Shown here piece after piece: positions 17,619 to 63,549 of a stretch of DNA of 64,000 nt. Origin of the DNA: Minisyncoccota bacterium. GTDB lineage: Bacteria > Patescibacteriota > Minisyncoccia > Phycocordibacterales > XYD1-FULL-46-19. The DNA is taken from assembly GCA_041649495.1 (NCBI GenBank), contig JBAZMZ010000001.1:64623-128622 (forward strand). The letters are read 5' to 3'. Under the pieces are notes generated by a model. That model saw nothing but the letters and a program-made list of their open reading frames with translations, was not told the origin of the DNA and made no database searches. The position numbers were made by a program, and so were the translations under genes. The first letter of the stretch is position 1. Each line of letters begins with the position of its first letter.

Positions 17619-17987
17619 ATGAAGTTGCTTGTAGTCTTAGTTGTTATGTCCGGGGTAGTTATTGGGTCATATTCGTACAGAGAAAGGGTTTCTCAGGAGA
17701 AGGCCATTCTTGAAGAGTTGAGTGGCTTGCGCAGAGATCTTTCTCTTGCGCGTGAAGAGGAGGCGATTCTCCTCACTTATGACAAGCTCGCTTCCGGCCA
17801 TTACAAGGTGGTCGTCGTGCAGAACGAGTATGACGGCACCGCCCTTGTTAGGGGGTATGGGCCGCATGGTTATGTCGACCGCATCGTCAGGAAGATGCCC
17901 CTAGGCTTGATGGTGTCCGGACGGGAGTTCTCCATAAGCTATGATTATGCTTTCCCAAGTTGGGCATCGTCACTTACTCGAAAATAG
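17619..17987 (+). CDS. Hypothetical 122-aa protein with N-terminal TM segment; compositionally atypical (higher GC, GC3-rich codons)
   Basis: Own consensus promoter, GGAGG SD 7 nt upstream, and two tandem terminators downstream. Confidence 0.6.
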   Translation: MKLLVVLVVMSGVVIGSYSYRERVSQEKAILEELSGLRRDLSLAREEEAILLTYDKLASGHYKVVVVQNEYDGTALVRGYGPHGYVDRIVRKMPLGLMVSGREFSISYDYAFPSWASSLTRK

Positions 17988-20061: not shown

Positions 20062-20075
20062 TATAAGCCCGAAAT

Positions 20076-20160
20076 CACAAATTCTAAACTCTAAACAAAT
20101 CCCAATCTCTAAGCCTTAAACTTGTTTCGAATTTCGGATTTAAGATTTCGAATTTTAGGA
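20076..20160. repeat. AT-rich heptamer-repeat element pair (forward and reverse) upstream of the substrate-binding protein gene
   Basis: CAAATTCTAAACTCTAAACAAATCC ... CTTGTTTCGAATTTCGGATTTAAGATTTCGAATTT. Confidence 0.5.
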
Positions 20161-20165
20161 ATATT

Positions 20166-21272
20166 ATGTCAAAAACTGCTAAATGGATTCTGGCGATTAT
20201 CGTGATTGTGCTCGTCGTCCTCGGGGTTTGGTATTATGGCTCGAAACCAACAACTTCGGTCGAAACTGGGCCGATTAAGGTCGGATTTATTTCTTCCCTG
20301 TCGGGGGAGGCTGGAGTTTGGGGCCAAAATCTTAAAGCTGGTTTTGATTTTGCCCTAAAGGAAATTAATGATAATGGGGGAGTAAACGGAAGGAAGATTG
20401 AAGTTTATTATGATGATGATAAATGCGATGCCACAACCGGAGTTACGGCTTTTAACAAAGCGATTGATGTTGACCAGGTAAAAATTATTACTGGGACAGT
20501 TTGTTCTTCTGTTGCCATGTCTGTTGCTAAAAAAACTCAAGAAAATGGTGTTCTCTACATCGCTTCTGGGGCTACTAATCCTGATGTCCCTAAGCAAGGA
20601 GATTTAATCTTTCGTCTATGGGTATCTGATGCTTATGAGGCCAAAGCTATTGCCGAGTATGCAACCGGTGTCTTAAAGTTGAAAACTTTTGGGATTGCTC
20701 ATGTCAATGATAACCCGGCAGGCATTTCTTTGAGAGATGAATTTAAATCGGTTGCTGAATCTAAAGGTGGAAAAATCTTGGGAATCGAGAGTTTTTCTTC
20801 AAAAGAAAGGGACTATAAAACATATATAACAAAATTGATAGCGAACAAACCGGAGGCCCTTTATGTTGTGGTCTTGCCTGAATCAATGCCAATCGTCATA
20901 AATCAGATCAGAACGATGGGTTATAAGGGGACTCTTCTTGCTTACAGCCCCGCAATGGTCGCTGAGGGAATTCTCGATAAGATAAAGGTCAAAGATAATC
21001 TCTATTATTCGACCCCAGTTGATAAAAAGGAAACAAATTTCTGGGAAAATTATCGTTTGTCAGCCGGCAAAGATGCCGATATGCTTACGGCTTTAGGTTA
21101 TGACAGTATGAAAGTTATTGAAGCTGGTCTCTCCAAATGTGGGGAAGATAATCAATGTATAAAAAATTACCTGTTATCTCTCAAAGACTATCAAAGCGCG
21201 AGAGGGAAATTAAACTTTGATAACTACGGAGATTTAACGGGTGTTGAATTCCAGACAATCAGGGTCAAATAA
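20166..21272 (+). CDS. Branched-chain/amino-acid ABC transporter substrate-binding protein (LivJ/K-like), membrane-anchored
   Basis: N-terminal signal anchor; periplasmic binding protein type I fold motifs; operon context with livHMGF. Confidence 0.75.
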   Translation: MSKTAKWILAIIVIVLVVLGVWYYGSKPTTSVETGPIKVGFISSLSGEAGVWGQNLKAGFDFALKEINDNGGVNGRKIEVYYDDDKCDATTGVTAFNKAIDVDQVKIITGTVCSSVAMSVAKKTQENGVLYIASGATNPDVPKQGDLIFRLWVSDAYEAKAIAEYATGVLKLKTFGIAHVNDNPAGISLRDEFKSVAESKGGKILGIESFSSKERDYKTYITKLIANKPEALYVVVLPESMPIVINQIRTMGYKGTLLAYSPAMVAEGILDKIKVKDNLYYSTPVDKKETNFWENYRLSAGKDADMLTALGYDSMKVIEAGLSKCGEDNQCIKNYLLSLKDYQSARGKLNFDNYGDLTGVEFQTIRVK

Positions 21273-21293
21273 TTAATCGACCCCAGTTCTACC

Positions 21294-21325
21294 CAAAAAC
21301 CGCTTCAGTCATGAGGCGGTTTTTG
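21294..21325 (+). terminator. Intrinsic terminator AAAAACCGC...GCGGTTTTT
   Basis: Hairpin with a T-run after the substrate-binding protein gene. Confidence 0.55.
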
Positions 21326-21423
21326 GATTGGGGGGATTTTTTATGCTATTATTTAGCTTGGTAGTTTGCTTCTACCTGCTGGAGGCAGGCAAGCCTACTA
21401 CTTATTACTTACTACTATCCTCC

Positions 21424-22296
21424 ATGTTTTCCCAAATTTTAATTAACGGTCTGATTGCTGGCGCGATTTATGCCTTAGTCGCGGCGGGTTTTTCGTTGAT
21501 TTATTCAACCACCAAATTTGTCCATTTTGCTCATGGCGGAGTCATTGCCTTGTCGGCCTATATGCTCTATCTGTTTTACTCTCTAATTGGGCTCAATTTT
21601 TGGCTGTCGGCGCTTTTGGCGATTATCTCGGGGGTGGTGATTGGGATTGGGATTGATTACTTAATTTATCGACCTCTGCGCCGGCGCCGAGCTTCATCCG
21701 TGATTATTTTGATTGCTAGCGTGGCTGTTTTGTTGATCTTAGAATCACTTAATCTGATGTTGTTTGGGGCGGATGTTAAATCAATCAATTTCTTGGAGAT
21801 TGGTTCGGGCTGGACGATTGGCCCGGTGATTATCACTTCTCTCCAGATTTTTATTGTCGTCTCTTCACTGGTGATGTTGGGGATTCTCTTTCTGTTTATG
21901 AAATATTCGAAAATTGGCAAAGCGATGCGCGCGGTGGCTGACAACCAAGCGGTGGCGGAGATTGTCGGGATTTCAGCCGAGAAAATCTATACCTGGTCTT
22001 TTGGTCTCGGCTCGCTGATTGCCGGTTTCGCCGCCGTTTTGATCGCCCTCGAACAAAATATCGAACCCACGATGGGCACCGCCTTAATCATCAAAGGCTT
22101 CACCGCCTCGATTATCGGTGGCGTCGAGAGTGTGGCCGGGGGAGTCTTGGGCGCTTTCTTGCTTGGTCTGGCCGAGAATTTTGGCATTTGGTGGTTACCC
22201 TCGTCATACAAAGATGCCATCGCGTTCTTTATCTTGTTTGTCTTTTTATTATTTAAACCAGAAGGTATCCTTGGGGTAAAGAAGGGTAATAAATGA
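21424..22296 (+). CDS. livH: Branched-chain amino acid ABC transporter permease (LivH-like)
   Basis: Polytopic membrane protein, ...FAHGGVIALSAYM...; start chosen at MFSQ, with a TACTACT-rich leader. Confidence 0.75.
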   Translation: MFSQILINGLIAGAIYALVAAGFSLIYSTTKFVHFAHGGVIALSAYMLYLFYSLIGLNFWLSALLAIISGVVIGIGIDYLIYRPLRRRRASSVIILIASVAVLLILESLNLMLFGADVKSINFLEIGSGWTIGPVIITSLQIFIVVSSLVMLGILFLFMKYSKIGKAMRAVADNQAVAEIVGISAEKIYTWSFGLGSLIAGFAAVLIALEQNIEPTMGTALIIKGFTASIIGGVESVAGGVLGAFLLGLAENFGIWWLPSSYKDAIAFFILFVFLLFKPEGILGVKKGNK

Positions 22297-22302
22297 TTTT
22301 AT

Positions 22303-22340
22303 TAAGCACGAAATTTTAAATTCGAAACTCGAAACAAATC
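22303..22340 (+). repeat. AT-rich heptamer-repeat element (forward copy) 5' of the four-helix-bundle gene
   Basis: AAGCACGAAATTTTAAATTCGAAACTCGAAACAAATCAT. Confidence 0.5.
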
Positions 22341-22343
22341 ATA

Positions 22344-22709
22344 ATGACTCAAATAATAAATTCCAAACCGAAAATCTACGATCTTGAAGATCGAACTTTA
22401 CTTTTCGCGAAGCGGGTTAATAATTATGTAAACAAATTACCCAAAAATATTTCTAATATCGAAAATGGGAAGCAATTAGTTCGATCCGCTGGTTCGGTTG
22501 GGGCCAATTATATTGAGGCCAATAACTCATTAAGTAAAAAAGATTTTGCCATGAGGGCAAAAATTTCTAAAAAAGAAGCAAAGGAAAGTATTTTTTGGCT
22601 TAATTTGAGTGAACCAACTCCAGACAATTCAAAAGAGAGAGAATTTTTAATAAAAGAATCAACAGAATTAATGAAAATATTAGGAGCGATCTTAGAGAAA
22701 ACAAAATAG
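22344..22709 (+). CDS. Four-helix-bundle protein (TIGR02436-like, '23S rRNA intervening sequence protein' family) inserted between livH and livM
   Basis: About 120 aa with LFAKRV...QLVRSAGSVGANYIEA...SKKDF...AKISKKEAKES..WL signature. Confidence 0.7.
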   Translation: MTQIINSKPKIYDLEDRTLLFAKRVNNYVNKLPKNISNIENGKQLVRSAGSVGANYIEANNSLSKKDFAMRAKISKKEAKESIFWLNLSEPTPDNSKEREFLIKESTELMKILGAILEKTK

Positions 22710-22736
22710 TTTATATTTTATGATTTATTGTTTATT

Positions 22737-22775
22737 ATTTGTTTCGAATTTAGTGCTTGTAATTTCGAGTTTAAA
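22737..22775 (-). repeat. AT-rich heptamer-repeat element (reverse copy) 3' of the four-helix-bundle gene
   Basis: TATTTGTTTCGAATTTAGTGCTTGTAATTTCGAGTTTAAATT is the reverse complement of the forward family member. Confidence 0.5.
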
Positions 22776-22782
22776 TTAGATT

Positions 22783-23655
22783 ATGGCTTCGGCTTACATA
22801 ATTCATCTTTTGATTTTAATCTGCATCTACTTGATTTTAAGCTTGTCGCTTAATTTGTCGGTCGGTTTTTCGGGCGTGCTTAATTTGGGTCATATTGCTT
22901 TTTATGGCTTGGGCGCTTATACCTCGGCCTTGCTGGCCCTTGCCGGCGTGCCGTTTATTCTCTGCTTTTTAGCCGGTGGAGTGGTCGCGCTGGGTTGTGG
23001 TTTTTTGTTGGCTTTGCCGACTGATAAAATTAAAGGGGATTACTTAGCTTTAGTGACTGTCGGTTTTTCTTTTATCGTTTATAGTTTAATGCTTAATCTT
23101 GATTGGCTGACGCGCGGGCCCTTGGGTTTGCCCGGCATTCCGCGACCGTCAATTCTTGGTTTCCGCTTTGAAGATAATTTTTCTTTTCTGATTTTAATCG
23201 CCATTATCACGGTAGCCGTTTATTTTATTATCAAGAGAATTACGGCCTCACCCTTCGGTAAATTGCTCGAAGCCGTGCGCGATGACGAATTAGCCGCCAA
23301 GATTCTAGGTAAAGATACTTTCAAACTGAAGGCTTTTTCACTGGGCCTCTCGGCCTTTTTTGCCGGTTTGGCGGGTTCGCTCTATGCCGGTTATATTACT
23401 TTCATCGACCCCTCATCTTTCTCGCTGATGCAAATTATCCCCATTATCTCCATTGTCATTGTGGGCGGTTTAGCTTCATTACCGGGGACGGTCTTGGCTG
23501 CTTTTGTCTTAACTCTAATTCCTGAAGCCCTGCGTTTTGTTGGCTTCCCCTCGTCGATTCTTGGTCCAATGCGTCAGATTATTTATGCTCTGATTTTATT
23601 ATTAATTTTGATTTATCGTCCCCGCGGATTTTCGGGTAAAGTTGAGCTCGAATAA
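22783..23655 (+). CDS. livM: Branched-chain amino acid ABC transporter permease (LivM-like)
   Basis: Polytopic membrane protein with LivM-type topology; operon context. Confidence 0.75.
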   Translation: MASAYIIHLLILICIYLILSLSLNLSVGFSGVLNLGHIAFYGLGAYTSALLALAGVPFILCFLAGGVVALGCGFLLALPTDKIKGDYLALVTVGFSFIVYSLMLNLDWLTRGPLGLPGIPRPSILGFRFEDNFSFLILIAIITVAVYFIIKRITASPFGKLLEAVRDDELAAKILGKDTFKLKAFSLGLSAFFAGLAGSLYAGYITFIDPSSFSLMQIIPIISIVIVGGLASLPGTVLAAFVLTLIPEALRFVGFPSSILGPMRQIIYALILLLILIYRPRGFSGKVELE

Positions 23656-23679
23656 ACATTATTTATTCGAGAAGCACTA

Positions 23680-23830
23680 AATCATAAATTCTAAATTCTA
23701 AACAAACACCAAATATCAAATTATAAAAAATTAAAATGAAAATAAATTTATCCCCGTTTAATTATTATGATTTAAATCTTAAAATTTGTTTCGAGTTTAG
23801 GATTTGTAATTTAGAATTTAAAAATCTATG
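23680..23830. repeat. AT-rich heptamer-repeat element pair (forward at 23680-23710, reverse at 23785-23830)
   Basis: AAATCATAAATTCTAAATTCTAAACAAACACC ... AAAATTTGTTTCGAGTTTAGGATTTGTAATTTAGAATTT. Confidence 0.5.
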
Positions 23831-24586
23831 GCTGGTAAATTAAATAACATTTTAGCTATCGAAAATCTCCGCAAATCTTTTGGCGGTGTCCACGCGGTTG
23901 ATGACTGCTCGTTTGAAGTAGAGCGAGGCAAGATCACGGCTTTGATTGGCCCAAACGGCTCGGGCAAGACGACGGTTTTTAATTTGGTGTCGGGGGTGAC
24001 TAGGGCAGACGGCGGGAAAATTATTTTAGACGGAAAAAATTTAACGCACTTATCGCCCCATCTTATTTCTAACCTCGGCCTTTCGCGGGTTTTTCAACAA
24101 TCTCGTCTCTTTGCCAATTTGACGGTTGAAGAAAATCTAATGTTAGCGTTTGACAACGAAGATCAAAAATTTTGGCAAAGTTTCTTGGGCTTAAAAAATA
24201 AAAATCGAATTGACAAGAAAAAGATTATTGGTGATTACTTGGAACTTGTCCGCCTTGGGCGGATGCGCGACAAACAAGCGCGAGATCTAAGCTTTGGTCA
24301 AAAGCGTTTAGTCGAAATTTTGCGCGCTCTAATCAATCCCCATAATCTTTTGATGCTTGATGAGCCGGTGGCGGGCGTCACGCCCGAATTGCGCGACAAA
24401 ATCAAAGAAGTTCTCCTTGATTTAAAAAAGAAAGGCGAGACTATCTTGCTAATAGAACACGATATGAATTTTACACTGAAAGTATCTGATTGGGTTATCG
24501 TGATGGATGCGGGGCAAGTAATTGCCGAAGGCACCCCTGACGAAATCCGTCATAATCCTAAGGTCTTGGAGGCATATTTGGATTAG
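23828..24586 (+). CDS. livG: ABC transporter ATP-binding protein (LivG-like)
   Basis: GPNGSGKTT Walker A, signature LSFGQKRLVEILRAL, and LLMLDEP Walker B. Confidence 0.85.
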   Translation: MAGKLNNILAIENLRKSFGGVHAVDDCSFEVERGKITALIGPNGSGKTTVFNLVSGVTRADGGKIILDGKNLTHLSPHLISNLGLSRVFQQSRLFANLTVEENLMLAFDNEDQKFWQSFLGLKNKNRIDKKKIIGDYLELVRLGRMRDKQARDLSFGQKRLVEILRALINPHNLLMLDEPVAGVTPELRDKIKEVLLDLKKKGETILLIEHDMNFTLKVSDWVIVMDAGQVIAEGTPDEIRHNPKVLEAYLD

Positions 24587-24654
24587 AATTGGTTATTTGC
24601 AGGGGGGGGTTAATTTGGTATAGTTGGGACATTATTAAATAAGCCCGAAATCAC

Positions 24655-24720
24655 AAATTCTAAACTCTAAACAAATCCCAATCTTTAAGCCTTAAACTTG
24701 TTTTGAATTTTAAGAAAATT
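24655..24720. repeat. AT-rich heptamer-repeat element pair, near-identical to the 20076-20160 copy
   Basis: CACAAATTCTAAACTCTAAACAAATCCC ... CTTGTTTTGAATTTTAAG. Confidence 0.5.
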
Positions 24721-24721
24721 T

Positions 24722-25780
24722 ATGTCAAAAACTGCTAAATGGATTCTGGCGATTATTGTGATCGCTCTCATCGTTCTCGGGGTTTGGTATTATGGCTCAA
24801 AACCAACTACCCCTGCAGAGACTGGACCAATTAAGATTGGGGTTATTACTGACTTAACCGGCCATGCGGCTTATTGGGGGGAATCAACCAGAGTGGGAGC
24901 TGAAATTGCTCAAAAAGAGCTAAAAGCTGAAGGCTACGATGTTGACTTAATTTTTGAAGATTATCAACTTGACGCTACCAAGTCGGTAAGCGCGGCGCAA
25001 AAATTGGTAAATCTTGATAATGTCAGTGCAATTTATTCTGAATTTAATCCGGCCTCAATTGCCGTCTCGTCGTTTTTGAAAGATCTTCCTGTTTTACATA
25101 TTTATGACGCGGCGCCTATCTCACCCCTAGCGATGTCGCCAAATGTCTTTAAGACCTATATTGATTACCAAAATGGCTGTAGACTGGTTGCACAAAAATT
25201 CAAAGATGAACAAATCAAAAAAATTGCAGTCTTAATGCCCAAGATTGAGGCGGGAGAACTTTGCCTCGTTGGGGCGAAAGAGGTCTACCCGGATCTAGTT
25301 GCTGAATCATACGAACTTGGTAATACTGATTTTCGCACTCAAGTTCTTAAGATCAAAAATAGCCAAGCTGGAGCAATAATTAATGTTGGTTTTGAAGGAG
25401 ATACTCTTGGGACGTTAAAATCAATCAGGGAACTTAATTATTTGGCTAAATATGGAACAGTAGATGACACCATAACTGATCAGGTAAAAGCTAAGTATGC
25501 CAAAGAATTAAAAGGTGCTTGGTCATTTGGTTTTGGCCAGGTTGATCCCAATTTTGAAGCCAAATTAAAATTGGCTTCATCAAAGACTTTAAGTACCGAA
25601 TATGGTGCCGCGATTGCTTATACCCATATAAAGCAAATGACAAAAGCCTTATCTAAATGTCAGAAGGATCTCGCCTGTGTTGACAGTGAGATAGCTAATG
25701 CTTCCGTGGATAAAACGATCGGTTTTAATGGTTTTAAAAATCGAATTGCTGATATCCAACTTCAATTGAGACAATATTAA
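24722..25780 (+). CDS. Second amino-acid ABC substrate-binding protein; N-terminal 30 aa and 5' leader duplicated from the 20166 gene
   Basis: MSKTAKWILAIIVI.LVVLGVWYYGSKPTT is shared with the 20166 gene; the rest diverges. Confidence 0.7.
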   Translation: MSKTAKWILAIIVIALIVLGVWYYGSKPTTPAETGPIKIGVITDLTGHAAYWGESTRVGAEIAQKELKAEGYDVDLIFEDYQLDATKSVSAAQKLVNLDNVSAIYSEFNPASIAVSSFLKDLPVLHIYDAAPISPLAMSPNVFKTYIDYQNGCRLVAQKFKDEQIKKIAVLMPKIEAGELCLVGAKEVYPDLVAESYELGNTDFRTQVLKIKNSQAGAIINVGFEGDTLGTLKSIRELNYLAKYGTVDDTITDQVKAKYAKELKGAWSFGFGQVDPNFEAKLKLASSKTLSTEYGAAIAYTHIKQMTKALSKCQKDLACVDSEIANASVDKTIGFNGFKNRIADIQLQLRQY

Positions 25781-37612: not shown

Positions 37613-38662
37613 CTATCTCCCATAGTCCTTATGGCCAAAGCCGCTTAAGTCCTTTTTGGCTTTTTTAATAAATTTCCCAAAGTCACGTTCCTTTTCTCTT
37701 TTTTCAATATTTGTCAACTCATAAAATTCAGCTTCTTTTTTTAATTTAATATAATTAAAATATTTTTCTTTATCCAAGGTGCCAGATTTTAAGGTAGACA
37801 ATACCGCGCACCCGGATTCTTGGGTATGGGTACAATCCTTATATTTACATCCGTCCGCCAAACTAGCTATTTCACCGAAAAAATCATTGACCCCTTCAAT
37901 GTTATCAGTCATCCCTACCTCTCTCATTCCCGGGTTATCTATCACGATACCTCCATTTTCAAGAAAATACATCTCCCTTTTGGTGGTGACATGTTTCCCT
38001 CTTCCCGAGTAAGTAGAAATATCTTCTGTTCTCAAAATATCTTTTCCAAGTAATTTATTAATCAGAGAAGATTTACCAACTCCTGATGACCCAAGAAAAC
38101 AATAGGTCTTGTCTTTTAAAATAAATTTTTTTAATTCGTCTAGACCCTCATTGGTTACTGTGCTAGCCAAGACGACATCAATCTTATTAAATCTATTTTT
38201 TATCTGAGACAAGACTAAATCTAATTTTTCTTTGGTAATTAAGTCAATCTTATTTAGAATAATTGCCACTTCGGCCTCACCGCCGGTAGCAATAGTAAAA
38301 TATCTTTCAAAACGATTTAGACTAAAGTCCCGGTCAACTGATTCAACTACAAAGGCAACATCAATATTTGTCGCAATAATTTGTGTTTCGTTTTTATTAT
38401 TGCTTTTTCTTTTTATAATCGTTTTTCTCGGCAATATTTTTTGAATGACGGCGTTTTCTTTGTCGGCCATCATAATTTCCACCCAGTCACCAACAGCAGG
38501 GTAATCTTCTCTTGAACCTGACTCGAACATTTGCTTGCCCGTAATTTTTGCCAAAAATTCACCGGCCGAAACTTTGACCTTATAAGCTCCTTTGTATTCA
38601 GCAATGACTCGCGCGACTATTGTTTCAGAATTTATTTTGTTCATACCTCGCCAATATACCAA
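37613..38662 (-). CDS. rsgA: Ribosome small-subunit-dependent GTPase A (RsgA/YjeQ)
   Basis: Circularly permuted GTPase motifs (NKIDL...GSSGVGKSSLINKL) and C-terminal zinc knuckle CKYKDCTHTQESGC. Confidence 0.85.
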   Translation of the reverse strand: MVYWRGMNKINSETIVARVIAEYKGAYKVKVSAGEFLAKITGKQMFESGSREDYPAVGDWVEIMMADKENAVIQKILPRKTIIKRKSNNKNETQIIATNIDVAFVVESVDRDFSLNRFERYFTIATGGEAEVAIILNKIDLITKEKLDLVLSQIKNRFNKIDVVLASTVTNEGLDELKKFILKDKTYCFLGSSGVGKSSLINKLLGKDILRTEDISTYSGRGKHVTTKREMYFLENGGIVIDNPGMREVGMTDNIEGVNDFFGEIASLADGCKYKDCTHTQESGCAVLSTLKSGTLDKEKYFNYIKLKKEAEFYELTNIEKREKERDFGKFIKKAKKDLSGFGHKDYGR

Positions 38663-38833
38663 AAATTCCCCAGCGGTTCTACGTCCTAACTAGGGTAGGC
38701 AAAAATACGTTGGATTACATTAACGAGTAATATGGGCTTAAGACTAATCGACAATAAGGCCACTTGTGCTTTTACTGGCTTACTGCTACAATAATCCTAA
38801 GTATTCCTAAAAAGCGGAATATAAAGAGCTAAA

Positions 38834-39451
38834 ATGCAATATTTAGACCTTAAGAAGCAATTAAAGGATTTTACCATTTTTTCAATCAAGGATATTGAAA
38901 AGGTTGATTTGTCGTTCCATAAGCAAAGATTAAGTGAATGGCAGAAAAAGAATTATGTCAAAAAGATTCGCCAAGGTTTTTATATTTTCTCCGATCTTGA
39001 AATAAATGAACCGGTGCTATTTATGATTGCCAATCGGATTAATGAACCCTCGTATATCTCATTGGAAATGGCCTTGTCACTTTATGGTCTTATTCCCGAA
39101 GCGGTCTATGGCTTGACTTCGGTCACCTCGCAAAAGACCAAGACTTTCAAGACTCCCGTCGGTGATTTCATTTATCGACATACTCGGCCTGAACTCTTAT
39201 TTGGTTATGAGCTTCGAGAATCTAATGGCCAGCATTATCAGATCGCTGAAATTGAAAAGGCCGTTCTCGATTACCTCTATTTCAACTCAGACCTTAAGGA
39301 CGAAGAGTCTTTTCGGGGTGTTCGGTTTAATGTTGACGAGTTTAAGGAAAGAGTAAATTTAGCCAAGTTTAATAAGTATCTTAGGGCTTTTAACAGCCAG
39401 GCCTTGGCTAAGCGAGCCAAGAAGTTTTTAACCTATATTGAACATGCTTAG
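38834..39451 (+). CDS. abiEi: AbiEi-family antitoxin / transcriptional regulator (type IV TA, abortive infection)
   Basis: About 200 aa; overlaps the downstream AbiEii gene by 14 bp; N-terminal wHTH-like region; matches AbiEi family architecture. Confidence 0.6.
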   Translation: MQYLDLKKQLKDFTIFSIKDIEKVDLSFHKQRLSEWQKKNYVKKIRQGFYIFSDLEINEPVLFMIANRINEPSYISLEMALSLYGLIPEAVYGLTSVTSQKTKTFKTPVGDFIYRHTRPELLFGYELRESNGQHYQIAEIEKAVLDYLYFNSDLKDEESFRGVRFNVDEFKERVNLAKFNKYLRAFNSQALAKRAKKFLTYIEHA

Positions 39452-40220
39452 TTTAAAAAATATCGAGCAGTATTATCCTGACAACGAGAAACCCTTTAAG
39501 CGCAATATCTTGAGAGAGTATTTACAATACAAAATTCTCGAGATCATTTTTAATTCTAAGTATGCTCAAGAGGTAATTTTTCTCGGCGGTACGGCTTTGC
39601 GAATTATTTATAATAATAGTCGATTCTCCGAAGACCTTGATTTTGATAATTTTACGTTAACCGAAGAACAATTTGCCGATTTGGCGGGTAAAATCAAGAA
39701 AGGACTTGAGTTGCAAGGTTACGAAGTCGAGATCAAGAATGTCTTTAAGGGCGCTTATTGCTCGTATATTCGGATGCCGAATGTCTTGTTTGACAATGAA
39801 GTATCTAATCTCAAAGAAGAAAAAATCATGATTCAAATTGATACCGTTCCCCATGCTTTTGATTACCAAAAAGACGCCAAGATTCTCAATAAATTTGATG
39901 TCTTTACCCAGATTTTTACCACTCCGATTGATATTCTTTTATCGCAAAAAATTTACGCCGCCCTTAATCGCTCGCGAGCCAAGGGGCGGGACTTTTTTGA
40001 TATTGTCTTTTTGATTCCCCAAACCAAGCCAAATTATGAATATCTCGAAAAAAAGCTTGGTATTAAGAATGGCCAAGAGTTAAAAAAAGCTTTGCTTGTT
40101 AAAACTGCGGGTTTTGATTTTGCTGACTTAGCCAAAGATGTTGAACCTTTTCTTATTAACGGCGAGGACAGCAAAAAAGTAAAAATGTTTCGGGAATATA
40201 TCACTTCAGTTGAATTTTAG
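39438..40220 (+). CDS. abiEii: AbiEii/AbiGii-family nucleotidyltransferase toxin (DUF1814)
   Basis: REYLQYKILEII..., FLGGTALRIIY, and DLDFD motifs typical of DUF1814 nucleotidyltransferases. Confidence 0.7.
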   Translation: MNMLSLKNIEQYYPDNEKPFKRNILREYLQYKILEIIFNSKYAQEVIFLGGTALRIIYNNSRFSEDLDFDNFTLTEEQFADLAGKIKKGLELQGYEVEIKNVFKGAYCSYIRMPNVLFDNEVSNLKEEKIMIQIDTVPHAFDYQKDAKILNKFDVFTQIFTTPIDILLSQKIYAALNRSRAKGRDFFDIVFLIPQTKPNYEYLEKKLGIKNGQELKKALLVKTAGFDFADLAKDVEPFLINGEDSKKVKMFREYITSVEF

Positions 40221-54951: not shown

Positions 54952-55443
54952 ATGAGCAAGAAGGAAAAGTTGGTTGTCCTGTTGATCTTTATGACGTTTA
55001 CTCTTAGTTTGTGGCAGTTGTCTTCTCCTCTGCGTAGCGATCTGGGAGAGGATTTAGTGGCAGAGGACGAAGTTGCCATCCTCACGGGTTTGGCCAGTCT
55101 TCATATCGAGACCCGAGATCTGGGCTGGTTGCCAGTAGTTTGGATGGAAGGGGTAGATGATGCCAGCGGGTTGTCTATGGTTATCATTTCTCTCGACCCC
55201 AACCATCCCAAGGAAATGGGGACGTGGCGACCGGTAATCCTGAGAACGGGAGGGTTCAATCCGGACAGGCGATCTTACCCGCAAATCGCGGGAGGTGCGT
55301 CGGGCATCTTCGCCCACGTCTATTCCAGTGAGACGAAGATTGAGCAAGCGCCGTTCATGATCGTCTTCTATGTTGGCGAAGGGGAGCTTCTTGGTGGAGT
55401 GGCCTACTCGGCGTACCTGGCTGAAAAAGAGGGGAAACCGTAA
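54952..55443 (+). CDS. Hypothetical 163-aa protein with signal/TM N-terminus; compositionally atypical (GC-rich codons)
   Basis: GGAGG SD 9 nt upstream; own promoter and terminator; codon usage differs from neighbours. Confidence 0.55.
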   Translation: MSKKEKLVVLLIFMTFTLSLWQLSSPLRSDLGEDLVAEDEVAILTGLASLHIETRDLGWLPVVWMEGVDDASGLSMVIISLDPNHPKEMGTWRPVILRTGGFNPDRRSYPQIAGGASGIFAHVYSSETKIEQAPFMIVFYVGEGELLGGVAYSAYLAEKEGKP

Positions 55444-57928: not shown

Positions 57929-58291
57929 ATGAGAACAAATATTAAAGCGACCGGGATTGAGTTAACGCCAGCTCTGACCGATTATGTTAATGAGAAGTTG
58001 GGGATGCTCGACAGATTGTTAGTTAATTGCGGTGATGTTTTGGCGGAGGTAGAGATTGGCAAAGAAACAAATCATCACAAAACTGGCAATTGGTTTTTTG
58101 CCGAGACTAATTTAAATTGTGACGGTAAATTACTTCGCAATGTGACCGAAAAAAATGATCTTTATGCCGCCATTGATGTCATGAAAGATGCCTTGGCTGA
58201 AGAAATTCGCTCTTACGAGAAACGCAAGCAATCACTCTTTCGTCGAGGAGCGCGCAATATCAAAAGAATTTTCTTTAAAGGGGGAGCCTAA
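57929..58291 (+). CDS. hpf: Ribosome hibernation promoting factor / RaiA (YfiA family, short form)
   Basis: MRTNIKATGIELTPALTDYVNEKL... matches the sigma-54 modulation protein fold. Confidence 0.75.
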   Translation: MRTNIKATGIELTPALTDYVNEKLGMLDRLLVNCGDVLAEVEIGKETNHHKTGNWFFAETNLNCDGKLLRNVTEKNDLYAAIDVMKDALAEEIRSYEKRKQSLFRRGARNIKRIFFKGGA

Positions 58292-59283
58292 TTAGATTTG
58301 GTGCCCACTTTGAAACCATTAAGGAAATCGGTCCAAGCCATCTCCTTTTTGCCGGCGGGGGTGACTCGATCGTAAATTAATTGTTCGCCTTCGAGGTGGG
58401 CTTGTTTAACAATCACCCTGATTTTACCGGCTGGTCCCGGGTAATCAAGATAGGTACCTGGCCACGGATTAAGGGCGAGGATTTTTCGATAATTAGTTAA
58501 CGGCAAATCATTTTGACCAAGCAGGCCATCTTCTTTGACGAATTTTTTGGTGTAAGTGGCCTGGTTATGGTCTTGTTCCTGTTCTTCAATCTTGTCGGTT
58601 AAATAATCTGGTAAAATTTTAATCAATAAATTTGTTCCCAATTCGGCAGTTTTATCACGAAGTTGCTCAAAATTAAATAAGGGGATACCTTGTCCGGCAT
58701 TTGTTCCGAGTTCTGGTCGAGGGGAGCTTAGGTTGAGGGATTCGCTGGCCAAGATTGGTCCGTGATCCATTTCGGCATCAAGCTTGATAATTGTCACGCC
58801 GGTTTCGGTATCACCATTTAGAATGGCAGTCTCAAGCGGGGATGGCCCGCGATATTTTGGTAATAACGATGGATGAATATTAAGTGTGCCTTTTGTCGGA
58901 ATATCCAAAATTTCTGGCGGAATGATTTTGCCATACGAGGCCACCAAGAAAAAATCCCAAGAGCGGACCGAAGTCGTATCTCGCGTAGCCAGATCCGACT
59001 TCGGGGAGCTCTGGGTCAAATTTTCTGAAGTCGCATTTAGCTCAGCAAAAAACGACTTCGAAAATTCTGGACCCTTTAAACTCGCCAATTGCATTACCGC
59101 CACCCCATTTTTCTCGCCCCAAACTTTCACCAACGGGGGAGTCATCACCATCTTTCGCCCCTGCGGTTTGTCGGGGATGGTAATAATCAATTTGGGTGTC
59201 AACCCTTTTCCCTTGAGTGTCTCCAACACCCTGACACTAAACTCATCCGTCCCGAAAAAAACAAAATTTACATTATTTATCAT
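58288..59283 (-). CDS. fmt: Methionyl-tRNA formyltransferase
   Basis: FFGTDEFSV..., SYGKIIP, and HPSLLPKYRG formyltransferase motifs; one low-complexity insertion. Confidence 0.9.
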   Translation of the reverse strand: MINNVNFVFFGTDEFSVRVLETLKGKGLTPKLIITIPDKPQGRKMVMTPPLVKVWGEKNGVAVMQLASLKGPEFSKSFFAELNATSENLTQSSPKSDLATRDTTSVRSWDFFLVASYGKIIPPEILDIPTKGTLNIHPSLLPKYRGPSPLETAILNGDTETGVTIIKLDAEMDHGPILASESLNLSSPRPELGTNAGQGIPLFNFEQLRDKTAELGTNLLIKILPDYLTDKIEEQEQDHNQATYTKKFVKEDGLLGQNDLPLTNYRKILALNPWPGTYLDYPGPAGKIRVIVKQAHLEGEQLIYDRVTPAGKKEMAWTDFLNGFKVGTKSN

Positions 59284-59431
59284 TAAGAGAGTATAACAAA
59301 AATGTTTCTTTTTTGCATTGCAGGTCTTGATACTTTAACCGAAAAGATGCTATCTTTTAGACAGATTGAGTCTGGGTTTGGGGTGTGCCCAATACCAGAG
59401 AGATAGGAAAAGCAAACTGGAGGGTTGACCC

Positions 59432-60070
59432 ATGTGGTTAACAGCGTGTTTAGTTGTCATGTTGCTTGGTCTGATGTTGTCCGCGGTGGTTCATAGGCGC
59501 CGGCGTCAGGAAGAACTTCTTTTTTGGCCCGACAGGCTTCCCCCGAATCGGCGGGTTGAAGAGGCCAAGAGATTGCTTGACGAGATGGAGTTTGATTGGG
59601 GGGAGGAAACTGGTAGCCCCTTCTTCCAATACCGCCTCCTCCTAAAGAAATGGCCTGGCCTAGCAGATGACCGTATCACTCTCGACTTGGCCAAGGGAGT
59701 TGTTCAAGCCACAAGGAGGAAAAACTCAAGGAGAATCCAGCGTGCCATCTCCGAGGGTCGGGTATCTGATTTGGGCAAGGCGTTTGCGGAGCTCCGGTCG
59801 TGCTCGCCGGATATTGATAAGATCGTCAATACGGACGAAGAGCTCCGACAGTCTTGGTTTCAGGCCAGAGCCGAGATTTTGTATGGCCAAGTTCTTTTGG
59901 CCGAAGGACGAGAACGCAAGTGTCAACGGGACGACCGAATCCGCGATCTATTATGGTTTCTAGTCGGGGAATTGGTCTTTGAGAGAGAAGATCTCCCTGG
60001 TGACTCTCTCAGTAATGTTGTCCAATCGCTTGTCCGAGATTTTGGTCCTCCCCCCTATCGAAACAAGTGA
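59432..60070 (+). CDS. Hypothetical 212-aa protein (N-terminal TM, Arg-rich), antisense-oriented between def and fmt; compositionally atypical
   Basis: GGAGGGTTGACCC-ATG SD; GC-rich codons; own terminator. Confidence 0.5.
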   Translation: MWLTACLVVMLLGLMLSAVVHRRRRQEELLFWPDRLPPNRRVEEAKRLLDEMEFDWGEETGSPFFQYRLLLKKWPGLADDRITLDLAKGVVQATRRKNSRRIQRAISEGRVSDLGKAFAELRSCSPDIDKIVNTDEELRQSWFQARAEILYGQVLLAEGRERKCQRDDRIRDLLWFLVGELVFEREDLPGDSLSNVVQSLVRDFGPPPYRNK

Positions 60071-60084
60071 TTGCCTTGCCGTGT

Positions 60085-60135
60085 TGTCTATGCCCTGTGC
60101 TTGCCTCTTGGCGAGCACGGGGCGCCTTTTTTTAT
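60085..60135 (+). terminator. Intrinsic terminator GCCCTGTGCTTGCC...GCGAGCACGGGGC with a long T-run
   Basis: Imperfect 10-13-bp stem plus TTTTTTTATTT; overlaps the last codons of def on the opposite strand. Confidence 0.55.
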
Positions 60136-60653
60136 TTGGCTTTTTCGGGGGAGTATTCTTTCACCTCCTTTGTTTTGTCGGTGAAGAGGATGCCGTTGAG
60201 ATGGTCTACTTCGTGTTGAAAAATTTGCGCCAGTAAACCAGAGCCGGAGCGGGTAAATTTTTTCCCTTCAAGATCATAAGCCGTCGCCGTAGCCTTGGTC
60301 GAGCGCTTCACTTGGCCATAAAGCCACCGCACCGAGAGACAGCCCTCCTCCATTTCCATTTTAGTTTTTGAAAGTTTTGTAATCGTGGGGTTGATGAAAA
60401 CGAGGTCAGGTTTTATTTTATTTGTTCCCCAATCTTCTTCGGGGGTGAAAACTTTGCCCGAGACGATAAAGATCTGGAGGGCCAAACCAATTTGAGGCGC
60501 GGCCAGCGCGACACCATCATCTTCCTGGTCGAGAGCCTCACGCATGTCGGTGACGATTTTCTTCAATTTGGGTGTGCCAAAAAGCGCTTCAGCCACCGGC
60601 TTGGCTGGTTGGTGTAAAACCTCATTTTCCTTTTGGACAATTTTAACCGTCAT
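60132..60653 (-). CDS. def: Peptide deformylase
   Basis: GVALAAPQIG, EGCLS, and HEVDHLNG motifs. Confidence 0.95.
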   Translation of the reverse strand: MTVKIVQKENEVLHQPAKPVAEALFGTPKLKKIVTDMREALDQEDDGVALAAPQIGLALQIFIVSGKVFTPEEDWGTNKIKPDLVFINPTITKLSKTKMEMEEGCLSVRWLYGQVKRSTKATATAYDLEGKKFTRSGSGLLAQIFQHEVDHLNGILFTDKTKEVKEYSPEKAK

Positions 60654-60754
60654 AATTAATAACTATAATTTACAACATTTTTCCCAAATAGACAAATTGG
60701 GTTTTTAGTGCTAGGAATTAATTGGACATGAACCTTGGAAAGGAGGTGATAAAT

Positions 60755-61522
60755 ATGTCCGAACCATACATTGGGATCACTGACTTCTTGACCTACGAAC
60801 AAGTCAAGAGAATGCTTAGAGCGTTTAAGGCTCACCGTTCAAAGAAATCAAGACGCCGGCTCCATGTCGGTGTCATGATGAGCCGCAAGACGCTTCGCGG
60901 TCTCGAAACCAAGGGGTCGCAAGCTTTTCCGCCCAAGGAAACAATAGACAGTATCTTTTCTTCGGACGAGGTAATGAATTGTCTCCACTACGCGGACTAT
61001 GGCTACGACCCTGACCTTGGCAAGAACTTAAGTGAAGCAATCGGTTATGGTGGCATCGGTATCAACGCTCTTCAGCTCGATATGGTTTGGCCAGATCCTG
61101 GTCAGATTGCGCATGGGGTTCATACCTCGCGCAAACAGCTCGAGATCATTCTTCAGATAGGCGAGAGGGCCCTTGATGAAGCGGGAAATGATCCAATTGC
61201 CACGGTTGAAAGACTTCAGGACTACGAAGGAGTGATTCACCATGTGCTACTCGACAAGAGTATGGGGAGGGGCCTCGGCATGGATGCCGTCGGGCTCATT
61301 CCTTTCGCTTGGGCGATCAAGGAGAGCTTCCCGACCCTTGGCCTTGGTGCCGCTGACGGGCTGGGACCAAACACTGTTCAACTGGTCAAACCACTTCTTC
61401 AAGCATTTCCCGATTTGAGTATGCAGGGGAAACTTCGACCAAGTGGCAACGCCCTTGACCCGATTGACTGGGGCATGGCCGAAACCTATCTCGTGGAAGC
61501 CCTCGATTTAACCCGTTCGTGA
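60755..61522 (+). CDS. Hypothetical 256-aa protein, antisense-oriented between priA and def; compositionally atypical
   Basis: AAGGAGGTGATAAAT-ATG SD; GC-rich codons; followed by a 12-bp-stem hairpin at 61527-61577. Confidence 0.5.
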   Translation: MSEPYIGITDFLTYEQVKRMLRAFKAHRSKKSRRRLHVGVMMSRKTLRGLETKGSQAFPPKETIDSIFSSDEVMNCLHYADYGYDPDLGKNLSEAIGYGGIGINALQLDMVWPDPGQIAHGVHTSRKQLEIILQIGERALDEAGNDPIATVERLQDYEGVIHHVLLDKSMGRGLGMDAVGLIPFAWAIKESFPTLGLGAADGLGPNTVQLVKPLLQAFPDLSMQGKLRPSGNALDPIDWGMAETYLVEALDLTRS

Positions 61523-61575
61523 AGTACAACAAAACCCAAATCGTTTGTTGTGTGAGACGAGGCGGGTTTTGTTGT

Positions 61576-63549
61576 TTACAAAACACTTTCGGGGTCGACT
61601 CGGATGAGGAAAGTGGGGTGGAGAGATTTGAGGAGAGAGAGGAGTTTTTTGTCGGGCCAGGCAGAGGATGGAAGTTTAACGAGGATATTGGAAACAGGGA
61701 GGCCTTTAACACTTTTGGTTAACGAGGGGTAATTAATTGGTTGCCATGGAGCGAGCGATTTCTCCAATTGAGCCAGATCTTTTTTAATTTCTTCTTTTTT
61801 GCCTTCGCGCGAAATTTTGATTAGGGTTTTGAAGGGGGGATAGCCAAGTTGTCGTCTCTCTTCTAATTCGTCGCGATAAAAATCGAGCAGGTTGCCGGAG
61901 AGAACAGCTTGAAAAACTTTTTCATCAGGATTGCGTGTTTGGATGAAAAAACGTTTGCTCGAGAGCAGTCGTAGGCGGAGCAATTCGCTAAACAATTTTT
62001 CGCCCAAGCGATAATCTGGTTTGGCAAAAAGATTGTCTAGTCCGACGATGGCGATGTTTTCAATTTTTTCGCGTAGATAATTGAGGGCCATTTCGGTCCC
62101 AATCAAAACCGAACCGGGTGAAGCGATAAATTGATTCATAATTTCTCGAGCTTTAGCTGGCGTTTTGGCGTTATCGTGGTCAAGTCGCCAAACCTTAATT
62201 TTAGGCGAGTGGGCTCTAATCTCGGCCTCAATTTTTTCCGCGCCAAAACCAAGCAGGGTTAATCGCTGGCCGTGGCAATTGGGACAATGGTCATCAATTT
62301 CGACTACCTGCCCACATTTGTGACAAAGAAAAAGATGATTGTCACTGACCTCGTTTGATTCCCCGCGAGTTTTTTGATGAATAGCGAGGGCCGAATGACA
62401 AATATCGCAAGTCATCACCAGTCCGCAATCACGACAAATGGTAATCGGGGTGAGACCGCGCTGACCGGCGAAGATAAAAAAGCGCTCATTATTATCGCTC
62501 GCATTTTCAATTTGGGCCAAGAGTCGTTCGCCCATTGAGCTTTGAATATCAAAATCGTCTTTTTTGTTTTTCTTAATTAGAGGCCAGAGTTGGGTTCGAC
62601 TGTCCGAATAAACGCGATATTTGATCGTGGCGGCGGGAGTAATTTCGCCTCGGCCGAGGCGGTAAATCGTTTCGCTTCGCAAAGCCAAATCGCCGAAGAT
62701 GAGGCGAAGTTTTTTTTGCTCGGCCAATTTTTCGGCAAAGAAGCGCCAATCAATATAAGGTCGAGAAAAATTTTTGTAAGCGCTCGAATTTTCTTTTTCT
62801 AAAATCAAAGTGGTGAGATCGGCGCGCGGGAGAGATAAGAAAAGGGGAGTGGCGATAATCAAAATCGGATGGGAAGTGGTCAAAACTTTTTTCCATAAAG
62901 TTAGGACTTGATTCTTGGCCAAACTCCCATGAAGCACCACCACATATTGTTCAATCCCTTTGGTAATTAAGGGGGTAAGGCGTTCGATATCGGGAAAAGT
63001 GGGGAGACAAAGGAAAACGGATTGCTTTTTGGCAAAACTTTCGCGAATCAAACTTTTATAAAAAGACCAACGCTCTTCGTCGGGTTCTTGCACGGCCAAA
63101 ATTTCGGTCAAAACTTTTTCACGCGAATCAACCCAGACTGGTGATTTGATCTCAGGCCATTTGTCTAAAATAATTTGGGGGATGAGCGATTTGATTACTT
63201 GGCCCGGGAAGGTGGCGTAATAATCAGCCGTCAAATTAGCCGTCTTGATAAACTCGGGCGAGAAATAACCAATTTTCTTAACTCGACTAATTTTACGCCA
63301 ACCAAAATCAGTTTTTTTGATTTGAGTTTTGAGATCTTTGACGGATTTTTCCGCGACCACGAGGCCGTCAATCACCCTGTTTTTGACTGGGACGGAGACA
63401 AGCGAACCGAGCGGTACCTCTTGAGCGGTAAAATAGGCGAGCGAATCTCGCCAAATGCCTTTGCTTAAGGGGATAACGCTGACGATTTTCATAGTTAAGT
63501 TAATTATTGGCAGTATAGCGATTTTCGACGATATCCACAACCGACCCAA
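61576..63549 (-). CDS. priA: Primosomal protein N' (PriA) with degenerate helicase motifs (no Walker A GxGKT, DEEH replaced by EKEN)
   Basis: N-terminal 3'-DNA-binding domain; Cys-rich zinc region CRDCG...CDICH...CHKCG...CPNCH; C-terminal domain. ATPase motifs are absent on inspection. Confidence 0.85.
   Translation of the reverse strand: MGRLWISSKIAILPIINLTMKIVSVIPLSKGIWRDSLAYFTAQEVPLGSLVSVPVKNRVIDGLVVAEKSVKDLKTQIKKTDFGWRKISRVKKIGYFSPEFIKTANLTADYYATFPGQVIKSLIPQIILDKWPEIKSPVWVDSREKVLTEILAVQEPDEERWSFYKSLIRESFAKKQSVFLCLPTFPDIERLTPLITKGIEQYVVVLHGSLAKNQVLTLWKKVLTTSHPILIIATPLFLSLPRADLTTLILEKENSSAYKNFSRPYIDWRFFAEKLAEQKKLRLIFGDLALRSETIYRLGRGEITPAATIKYRVYSDSRTQLWPLIKKNKKDDFDIQSSMGERLLAQIENASDNNERFFIFAGQRGLTPITICRDCGLVMTCDICHSALAIHQKTRGESNEVSDNHLFLCHKCGQVVEIDDHCPNCHGQRLTLLGFGAEKIEAEIRAHSPKIKVWRLDHDNAKTPAKAREIMNQFIASPGSVLIGTEMALNYLREKIENIAIVGLDNLFAKPDYRLGEKLFSELLRLRLLSSKRFFIQTRNPDEKVFQAVLSGNLLDFYRDELEERRQLGYPPFKTLIKISREGKKEEIKKDLAQLEKSLAPWQPINYPSLTKSVKGLPVSNILVKLPSSAWPDKKLLSLLKSLHPTFLIRVDPESVL

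Follow-up and report, generated by a model that had tools for sequence, protein, structure and literature searches.

The window, a 64,000-nucleotide stretch of a Minisyncoccota contig, contains a priA-def-fmt cluster in which all three genes are encoded on the minus strand, with one plus-strand open reading frame (ORF) in each of the two gaps. The fmt gene (58288..59283, minus strand) encodes a methionyl-tRNA formyltransferase of 331 aa (Pfam Formyl_trans_N, 5.6e-28) and has orthologs in 79 of 81 related loci. The def gene (60132..60653, minus strand) encodes a peptide deformylase of 173 aa (Pfam Pep_deformylase, 1.1e-43), and the third gene (61576..63549, minus strand) encodes a priA-like primosomal protein of 657 aa when counted from the first TTG. 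The latter matches Pfam PriA_3primeBD and scores 208 bits against NCBIfam TIGR00595, under the cut-off of 230.35; its start probably lies close to 63492. The def-fmt gap measures 848 bp and holds ORF1 (59432..60070, plus strand, 212 aa), and the priA-def gap measures 922 bp and holds ORF2 (60755..61522, plus strand, 255 aa). These measurements confirm the layout given in a sequence-only reading of the same DNA, which had put the gaps at about 850 and 920 bp. That reading had also described the two ORFs as antisense to an essential operon. Both do lie on the opposite strand; however, neither overlaps any coding sequence of its neighbors, so that antisense means opposite strand only.

ORF1 is preceded by a GGAGG Shine-Dalgarno (SD) sequence (59419..59423, plus strand), 8 nt 5' of its ATG, and by a promoter-like site detected in a consensus scan (TTGATA-18-TATCTT with a TG; 59327..59356, plus strand), which would imply a 5' UTR of about 70 nt. 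It is followed by an intrinsic terminator (60091..60133, plus strand; dG -33.2, z -5.5) with a 15-pair stem in the hairpin (60091-60124) and a run of seven Ts (60127-60133). The terminator had been said to overlap the last codons of def; just 2 nt of the T-run touch the def stop codon (60132-60134). Read on the minus strand, the hairpin has no U-tract, so that def transcripts could run antisense through ORF1. The encoded protein has an N-terminal transmembrane (TM) helix followed by RRRR, in agreement with its earlier description as a TM and Arg-rich protein, and then an all-helical cytoplasmic domain; the AF2 model is likewise all-helical, with a pLDDT of 64.5. No Pfam or NCBIfam domain matched above threshold. 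A possible assignment to Cas1 was rejected (16 bits against cut-offs of 22.3 and 358), with an empty PDB profile search and no Foldseek match at E<0.2.

Homologs of ORF1 were sought among 5.8 billion protein clusters, and among 1.84 billion representatives of clusters that together cover about 15 billion proteins. The sole homolog was P0122 (33% identity over 162 aligned residues, E 1.7e-10 against the 1.84 billion representatives), which is encoded in L011, a genome from the sister clade. P0122 occupies the same fmt/def gap in the same orientation and with the same codon signature. Length, TM-plus-basic N-terminus, and position are conserved between the two proteins, and the stem motif of the ORF1 terminator, CCCCGTGCTC, is common to the L011 cassette; at the DNA level, similarity between the two genes was not detectable. 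The housekeeping proteins of the window and L011 are 54-66% identical, and the flanking DNA is about 64-68% identical. Two other candidates were dismissed: P0123, a 4634-aa repeat protein judged to be a repeat artefact, and a 286-aa TM protein in the def-fmt gap of L015 (hhalign probability 0.1). No remnants of ORF1 were found in the L014 and L015 gaps.

ORF2, which is led by the SD sequence AAGGAGGTGA (60740..60749, plus strand), belongs to a Patescibacteria-wide family of at least 785 proteins (60-71% identity) that has no Pfam model. The AF2 model (pLDDT 92.8) has eight strand-helix units, and Foldseek matched it with probability 1.0 to TIM-barrel enzymes (TM 0.55-0.62, sequence identity 7-15%). 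No curated family (TPI, TrpF, RPE, and others) in Pfam or NCBIfam matched at E<0.1, and the best PDB profile matches were local only, with E 0.01 or worse. A glycine-rich motif on strand 196-200 aligns weakly to the phosphate-binding loop of ribulose-phosphate 3-epimerase. This motif, AGGLGP, is intact in 119 of 120 family members; the window copy reads ADGLGP (G201D) and also carries a 2-aa deletion in SIDAQGKLRPSG, both changes being unique (1/120). ORF2 resembles the phosphate-binding (beta/alpha)8 barrels, taken broadly (triosephosphate isomerase, MJ1099, KDO8P synthase, OMP decarboxylase, ribulose-phosphate 3-epimerase), in that it is confidently modeled as an eight-stranded barrel with a glycine motif, but differs from them in its modest TM-scores, its low sequence identity, and the G201D substitution within that motif. 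Five genomes carrying the family showed five different neighborhoods. In L124, a distant homolog is also adjacent to def and divergent from it, and other distant relatives (32-37% identity) lie on huge-phage contigs, adjoining RNA ligase genes.

A hairpin (61526..61575; dG -24.9 and -20.5, z -4.1) lies between the convergent stop codons of ORF2 and priA and abuts that of priA. Its priA-proximal arm, CAACAAAACCCGCC, is kept 3' of priA in L014 and L015, both of which are without ORF2; the hairpin is therefore assigned to the priA side, probably as a terminator that acts bidirectionally. The earlier assignment of a separate hairpin or terminator to each ORF thus holds for ORF1 but not for ORF2. 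A 19-nt imperfect inverted repeat around ORF2 (60687-60705 and 61531-61549, 79% complementary) was treated as chance because it shares positions with the def promoter region and with the priA hairpin.

Of the 58 credible genes of the window, 4 combine a credible start with a strong SD, ORF1 and ORF2 among them, which bears out the claim that such sequences are rare in the native genes. A TATAAT-like box ending 4-12 nt 5' of the start codon precedes 19 of the 58 genes, versus 3% of random positions. An extended -10 box, TGTTATACT (59290..59298, minus strand), was found by a -10 scan 6 nt 5' of the fmt ATG, and in the other genomes where cargo fills the def-fmt gap, a TGnTAnAnT box also precedes fmt; TGTTATACT likely drives separate transcription of fmt as a leaderless mRNA. 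The putative def promoter region (60654..60700, minus strand), with TATAGT ending 8 nt 5' of the ATG and an upstream TTGTCT motif, is conserved in L014, L016, and L017. The position of these boxes immediately before the ATG of def and fmt would imply leaderless mRNAs. A literature search combining leaderless, SD, and Patescibacteria returned nothing.

GC3 is 0.549 in ORF1 and 0.555 in ORF2, compared to a mean of 0.463 (sd 0.068). Since this measure separates the genes poorly (z about 1.3, and def reaches 0.534), we used a synonymous-codon likelihood test instead. ORF2 ranked first of 58 genes (z = -5.0) and ORF1 fifth (z = -3.95). The test sets both apart from the native genes, including rpoB and rpoC, as had been proposed, whereas the proposed GC3 richness amounts to just +1.3 sd and is nearly shared by def. 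The four SD genes occupy codon-deviation ranks 1, 2, 3, and 5 of 58 (hypergeometric P about 1e-5, estimated from the ranks), this class consisting of four short genes in one 64-kb window. The other two are also single-gene cassettes. One lies at the gpm-eno junction (54952..55443, plus strand; GC 0.528, codon z -4.55) and is followed by a hairpin; this junction is tight in L015 and L018. The other (17619..17987, plus strand; GC 0.504, codon z -4.43) is followed by a GC-rich hairpin.

The gaps were compared across 80 def-anchored species and L011, with priA-def counted in 66 species and def-fmt in 72. The median gap is 52 bp for priA-def and 27 bp for def-fmt; gaps larger than 300 bp occur in 16 of 66 and just 3 of 72 species, respectively. 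Because the gaps are this small in the relatives, ORF1 and ORF2 both interrupt an ancestral operon. The coincidence of two insertions exactly in the gaps had been considered unusual; both do interrupt an ancestrally compact cluster, but interruption at priA-def is not exceptional among these relatives. The order priA, def, fmt, hpf is kept in nearly all 81 loci, so the interval is bounded by core genes. In L017, the fmt ATG overlaps the def stop codon, and the junctions are without cargo. In other close relatives the same junctions hold a ParB-like protein, an aminotransferase, a fucose isomerase (GC 0.587 versus 0.437 for the locus), a histidine phosphatase, or uncharacterized genes. Across the window, L011, and L014-L018, there are at least five states at priA-def and five at def-fmt. 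The def/fmt pair is split by opposite-strand genes in the window, L011, and L015, and the inserted ORFs of the relatives lie on the strand opposite def in most cases. PriA of the window is 77-81% identical to that of the clade-A relatives; L009 and L010 are essentially the window sequence, with one substitution and a scaffold gap.

Phylogenies of priA, def, fmt, and hpf are mutually congruent, and L011 falls in the sister clade. The possibility that fmt or def had moved together with ORF1 between the lineage of the window and that of L011 was rejected on the basis of this congruence. ORF1 has probably been located between fmt and def since before the two sister clades split. An ancestral ORF1 requires at least five losses or replacements (L014-L018), three of them leaving a tight or overlapping def-fmt junction, which counts against the explanation that we favor below.

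The sequence-only reading had considered both ORFs compositionally foreign. Recent horizontal acquisition, in which all four cassettes came from a higher-GC, SD-using donor (another Patescibacteria lineage or a phage) and have not yet ameliorated, would explain why the four SD genes are all atypical in codon usage, why most relatives have empty junctions, and why close relatives differ in cargo. The huge-phage contigs with distant ORF2 relatives are also consistent with it, and a donor that has not been sampled would account for the lack of any ORF2 homolog above 71% identity; so, equally, would accelerated divergence of the window copy, given G201D and the 2-aa deletion. However, the ORF1 homolog in the sister clade keeps the same site, orientation, and codon signature at an identity far below that of the housekeeping proteins. 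A foreign signature should have ameliorated over the span separating the window from L011, so the shared signature counts against recent import, and by the terms of the earlier reading it counts against a foreign ORF1. The flanking DNA of the two genomes is too dissimilar for recombination-mediated transfer into the same site, and the fmt and def trees agree with the priA tree. For ORF2, GC above that of the flanks and an SD (GAAAGG- or AGGAG-type) each recur in 22 of 27 family loci from diverse host genomes and are thus intrinsic to the family. Searches for a foreign source returned no PHROGs or plasmid match, PADLOC was also negative, and the relatives on phage contigs are distant. Each gap holds a single gene, with no integrase, transposase, or recombinase domain; the repeat search yielded nothing convincing at the gaps, whether flanking direct repeats, target-site duplications, or terminal repeats, and the nearest tRNAs are at 27 and 41 kb. 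The odd composition belongs to the gene families and does not support the claim of recent foreign import, which we consider unlikely.

The orientation of the ORFs raises the question of regulation. Excludon-type and convergent transcription are known regulatory modes, and the window resembles them in having opposite-strand genes between co-oriented genes and a hairpin shared by convergent ends; it is unlike them in having no coding overlap and a cargo that is not conserved among relatives. Were the cassettes selected because convergent or divergent transcription tunes def and fmt, one could account for the ORF1 terminator abutting the def stop codon, the hairpin lacking a U-tract on the def strand, the prevalence of inserted ORFs opposite def in relatives, and the L124 homolog that is again divergent from def. 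We regard such a module as improbable, since coding overlap is absent, def and fmt appear to have their own -10 boxes, cargo identity varies freely with most species having none, and the gaps contain no conserved non-coding element or Rfam match (whole window at the gathering threshold; 59100-61800 at E<1). It is more improbable still that ORF1 is not a gene, the def-fmt gap being a non-coding spacer or decayed remnant with a chance open frame in GC-rich DNA. A two-member family, a low-confidence structure model, and no domain match above threshold are what one would expect of such a frame; protein similarity over 162 aligned residues where DNA similarity is undetectable, the conserved length, N-terminus, and position, and the framing of the ORF by a canonical SD and a strong terminator are not.

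We favor, with moderate confidence, the explanation that priA-def and def-fmt are hotspots of gene gain, loss, and replacement, and that the leadered cassettes which they hold form a class of their own in a Paceibacteria genome where SD sequences are mostly lacking. To the observed anatomy, gap comparison, family distributions, and codon and SD statistics, this explanation would add the following. Each junction holds one autonomous accessory cassette, composed of a candidate promoter, a 5' UTR with an SD, the ORF, and then a hairpin, that of ORF2 being supplied by the priA side. ORF1 would be a membrane-anchored helical protein, old in the fmt/def gap, that was lost or replaced in most members of the two sister clades; ORF2 would be a conserved, predicted phosphate-binding-type TIM-barrel enzyme from a family whose neighborhood changes from genome to genome. 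The cassettes would have broken up a priA-def-fmt operon that was ancestrally co-transcribed and in part coupled in translation, leaving separate units, with def and fmt each using its own -10 box at the ATG to produce leaderless mRNAs, as consensus matches suggest, and the hairpins at the convergent gene ends may limit read-through. The atypical codons (AAG, AGR, CAG, NNC), extra GC, and SD may then be stable family traits that mark a minority leadered, SD-translated class, and not scars of recent import. Composition that looks foreign, combined with an SD, can thus be a lasting trait of a gene family, and comparative data are needed before it is taken as a sign of recent transfer.

The cluster is, in these terms, a rather unremarkable site of gene turnover. 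Turnover hotspots that lie between the core genes of chromosomes have been described (Oliveira et al. 2017, Nat Commun 8:841, PMC5635113). As in those hotspots, conserved core genes bound the interval and the accessory content varies among relatives. In contrast to them, the window junctions hold one small gene each, in a reduced-genome Patescibacterium and inside an otherwise co-transcribed housekeeping cluster, and of the cargo genes at least ORF1 seems long established at its site, not recently transferred.

A bolder and rather doubtful proposal is that Paceibacteria have two translation regimes: an SD-less backbone, with many genes apparently leaderless and preceded by a -10 box before the ATG, and codon-distinct, leadered, strongly SD-dependent, terminator-bounded single-gene cassettes at variable core junctions. 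The signature would have been selected over deep time, as suggested by ORF1 in the two sister clades and by the 22 of 27 ORF2-family loci. If true, this would point to a pool of accessory genes under conditional translation or to an unrecognized cassette-exchange system. The locus offers three leads that leave current concepts unchanged on present evidence: a large, conserved, uncharacterized TIM-barrel family, distant relatives of which adjoin RNA ligase genes on huge-phage contigs; a class of cassettes with an SD and distinct codon usage in a genome where most genes have no SD; and a family of membrane proteins, two members in all, that is fixed in the fmt/def gap.

The def-fmt operon is co-transcribed in E. 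coli and many other bacteria. The window retains the same gene order and orientation, and in most of the Paceibacteria examined the two genes are close (the 27-bp median) or overlapping; the window differs in that the pair is split by an opposite-strand gene and fmt is preceded by its own -10 box. Even def and fmt, tightly packed as they are, can thus be separated by accessory genes in the reduced genomes of Patescibacteria. The gpm-eno junction is likewise variable.

A Candidatus Paceibacterota MAG (NCBI locus tags WC531_) is the source of the window, in which fmt (58288-59283), def (60132-60653) and priA (61576-63549) are located on the minus strand. The 848 bp gap between def and fmt contains the plus-strand ORF1 (59432-60070; 212 aa), and the 922 bp gap between priA and def contains the plus-strand ORF2 (60755-61522; 255 aa). 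This layout was correctly described in a sequence-only reading by a model, which interpreted the ORFs as two independent foreign insertions, a view that is only partly supported. Neither ORF overlaps another coding sequence, and no integrase, tRNA or flanking repeat was found in the gaps. The Shine-Dalgarno (SD) motifs are GGAGG before ORF1 and AAGGAGGTGA before ORF2. On its 3' side, ORF1 has a strong intrinsic terminator (15-pair stem, dG -33 kcal/mol, z -5.5, then T7), which the sequence-only reading had placed over the last codons of def; however, only the last two T of the T7 run overlap the def stop codon. The stop codons of ORF2 and priA are 53 bp apart, and a hairpin (dG -24.9, z -4.1) occupies this space. 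The arm nearer priA, CAACAAAACCCGCC, is conserved 3' of that gene in two relatives without ORF2; the hairpin was therefore assigned to the priA side, and the claim that each ORF carries its own terminator holds for ORF1 only. The window priA product is a divergent PriA. Its sole Pfam match is the 3'-DNA-binding domain, and its NCBIfam PriA score is 208 against a cut-off of 230.35 bits; the PriA homolog of the related locus L011 is similar, with no Pfam family recorded for it.

We recovered 80 loci in a comparison anchored on def, using one genome per species. The priA-def-fmt order is conserved across these loci, with hpf encoded on the other strand. As the sequence-only reading had suggested checking, the gaps in relatives are normally small: the median is 52 bp for priA-def (more than 300 bp in 16 of 66) and 27 bp for def-fmt (more than 300 bp in 3 of 72), and in L017 the fmt ATG overlaps the def stop codon. 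ORF1 and ORF2 thus interrupt an ancestrally compact cluster, and this part of the insertion claim stands.

The PriA, Def, Fmt and Hpf phylogenies are mutually congruent, and place the window with L014-L017 (clade A) and L011 with L018 in the sister clade B. Across these seven genomes both junctions are highly variable. Both are tight in L017; def-fmt is also tight in L016 and L018, where the priA-def junction holds an aminotransferase gene (GC 0.56) and a stretch of about 3.9 kb that includes a fucose isomerase gene (GC 0.587; locus GC 0.437), respectively. L015 has a ParB-like gene and an unknown between priA and def, and two unknown ORFs between def and fmt; L014 has small unknown ORFs in both junctions; and in L011 the priA-def junction is empty (141 bp), while a homolog of ORF1 lies between def and fmt. 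Most of the larger inserted ORFs run opposite to def. The data best support gene turnover at these junctions, of the kind described by Oliveira et al. (PMC5635113) but within a housekeeping cluster; the site now holds two autonomous, leadered, SD-translated cassettes, that is, single SD-led ORFs followed by a hairpin or inverted repeat. The insertions would have split the priA-def-fmt operon. A -10 box matching the consensus is found 6-8 nt before the ATG of both def and fmt; the corresponding promoters are putative, as would be any transcriptional interference.

GC3 by itself is a weak signal, with values of 0.549 for ORF1, 0.555 for ORF2 and 0.534 for def; the mean over the window is 0.463 (sd 0.068). 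To measure codon deviation, the likelihood of each gene's synonymous choices was compared to the pooled other genes, using simulations that preserve the amino-acid sequence. The codon usage of ORF2 and ORF1 was indeed atypical, as had been claimed (rank 1, z -5.0, and rank 5, z -3.95, among 58 genes); usage in rpoB, rpoC, eno, fmt and priA is typical. The claim that native genes lack the SD was also borne out: only ORF1, ORF2, 17619-17987 and 54952-55443 have a strong SD before a credible start, four further flagged starts being discounted as internal or spurious. These four genes have ranks 1, 2, 3 and 5 for codon deviation (hypergeometric estimate from ranks ~1e-5). They use AAG at 0.69-0.83, compared to 0.30 in the rest, and AGA+AGG at 0.33-0.50, compared to 0.15; CAG, ATC, AAC, TAC, TTC and CTT are also commoner in the pooled four.

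A GC-rich inverted repeat lies directly 3' of both 17619-17987 and 54952-55443. Both genes are small, have no Pfam match and encode proteins with a hydrophobic N-terminus; they combine the SD with GC-richness and the AAG/AGR/NNC codon signature. The gpm|eno junction that holds 54952-55443 is tight in L015 and L018 and filled differently in L016; this gene is a third cassette of the ORF1/ORF2 class at a variable junction. Most window genes have no SD. A TATAAT-like box, often TGn-extended, ends 4-12 nt before the start codon in 19 of 58 genes, def and fmt among them, compared to 3% of random positions (examples are 59290-59298 and 60662-60667). Many genes thus appear leaderless, which suggests that leaderless mRNAs are widespread in this Paceibacteria genome.

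Searches of 5.8 billion protein clusters and 1.84 billion cluster representatives returned a single homolog of ORF1, P0122, encoded in L011. The two proteins are equal in length (33% identity over 162 residues, E 1.7e-10) and share an N-terminal TM helix followed by basic residues. The P0122 gene is on the plus strand between fmt(-) and def(-), the same place and orientation as ORF1. Housekeeping proteins of the window and L011 are 54-66% identical, and the ORF1 regions have no DNA similarity; nevertheless, the L011 copy is GC-rich (0.509 versus 0.45), repeats the codon signature relative to its neighbors, and shares the terminator stem motif CCCCGTGCTC. The sequence-only reading had named a relative with the same ORF and similar composition as evidence against insertion, and for ORF1 L011 is such a relative. 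Since a foreign signature would be expected to fade over this divergence, we infer that the composition of ORF1 is maintained rather than the legacy of a recent donor. The flanks, at 64-68% identity, are also poorly suited to recombination that would move ORF1 into the same site; ORF1 is therefore probably old in the def-fmt gap, with loss or replacement in the other members of both clades. The ORF1 structure model is all-helical and of low confidence (pLDDT 64.5), and no fold or profile matches were found; weak matches to Cas1 were all below threshold.

ORF2 has at least 785 homologs, none with a Pfam domain; all matches bearing a taxon name belong to Patescibacteria, with Paceibacterota in the majority. 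In 27 loci with enough flank, the family gene exceeds its surroundings in GC content in 22, and an SD-like motif precedes it in 22. The five neighborhoods inspected all differ, and each copy has its own terminator-like inverted repeat just downstream. The adjacency of def and an ORF2-family gene recurs in a distant Paceibacteria contig (L124 1-1483), where the gene (54% identity) is divergent from def, with fmt tight behind (Def 51% identical). The "foreign" features of ORF2 are therefore properties of its family.

Horizontal transfer of ORF2 from an unsampled donor could nonetheless explain why the best 120 homologs are only 61-71% identical and none exceeds 71%, even though PriA of clade-A relatives is 77-81% identical. 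The window copy also carries two changes unique among the 120 best-scoring members: G201D in the otherwise invariant AGGLGP, and a 2-aa deletion (residues 222-224; 'DA' missing from SIDAQGKLRPSG). Identical sequence in three independent assemblies rules out an assembly error. The low identity and unique changes could both reflect such a donor, but they fit relaxed or changed constraint equally well, and the window copy may be inactive or of changed function. A less probable but still viable idea is that the SD-led, codon-distinct accessory cassettes form a class maintained by selection, within a Patescibacteria genome that largely lacks SDs.

AlphaFold predicts a confident (beta/alpha)8 barrel for ORF2 (pLDDT 92.8). 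Foldseek matched triosephosphate isomerase, MJ1099, KDO8P synthase and OMP decarboxylase (TM 0.55-0.62), and a profile search touched the phosphate-binding loop of ribulose-phosphate epimerase. Phage and plasmid searches, also proposed in the sequence-only reading, gave no PHROGs or plasmid matches; viral relatives of ORF2, just 32-37% identical, occur on contigs of 65-183 kb and in a 485-kb phage genome (L094 7974-9947; L096 2094-4666; phage record LR745208.1 203654-204385). In the two viral loci inspected, the relative is within ~1.2 kb of a T4 Rnl1-type RNA ligase gene; an M23 peptidase gene is situated upstream, and homing-endonuclease genes are present in this region of L096. These neighbors may point to a function of the wider family connected with RNA or nucleotides.

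The closest relative has a 268-bp def-fmt gap (L014 6520-6780) with a 43-codon opposite-strand ORF, which has a strong GGAAAGGAG SD and is closely followed by an inverted repeat, a cassette of the same type in miniature. In L011 (reverse complement, ~3000-3110) and L015 (5070-5230), a long inverted repeat that is absent from the window has its 5' arm, CCCCCACACCAA, in the last def codons (…YTPPHQ) and its 3' arm ~35 nt and ~100 nt downstream, respectively; the repeat may represent either a conserved terminator of def or a small insertion. Elsewhere in the window, two Peripla_BP_6 substrate-binding protein genes (20166-21272 and 24722-25780) are paralogs whose products are nearly identical at the N-terminus; they lie in an AT-rich stretch (19426-25780; GC3 0.33-0.37) and are codon outliers too, but of the opposite sign from the SD cassettes; another low-GC block is located at 37.6-40.2 kb (37613-40220).
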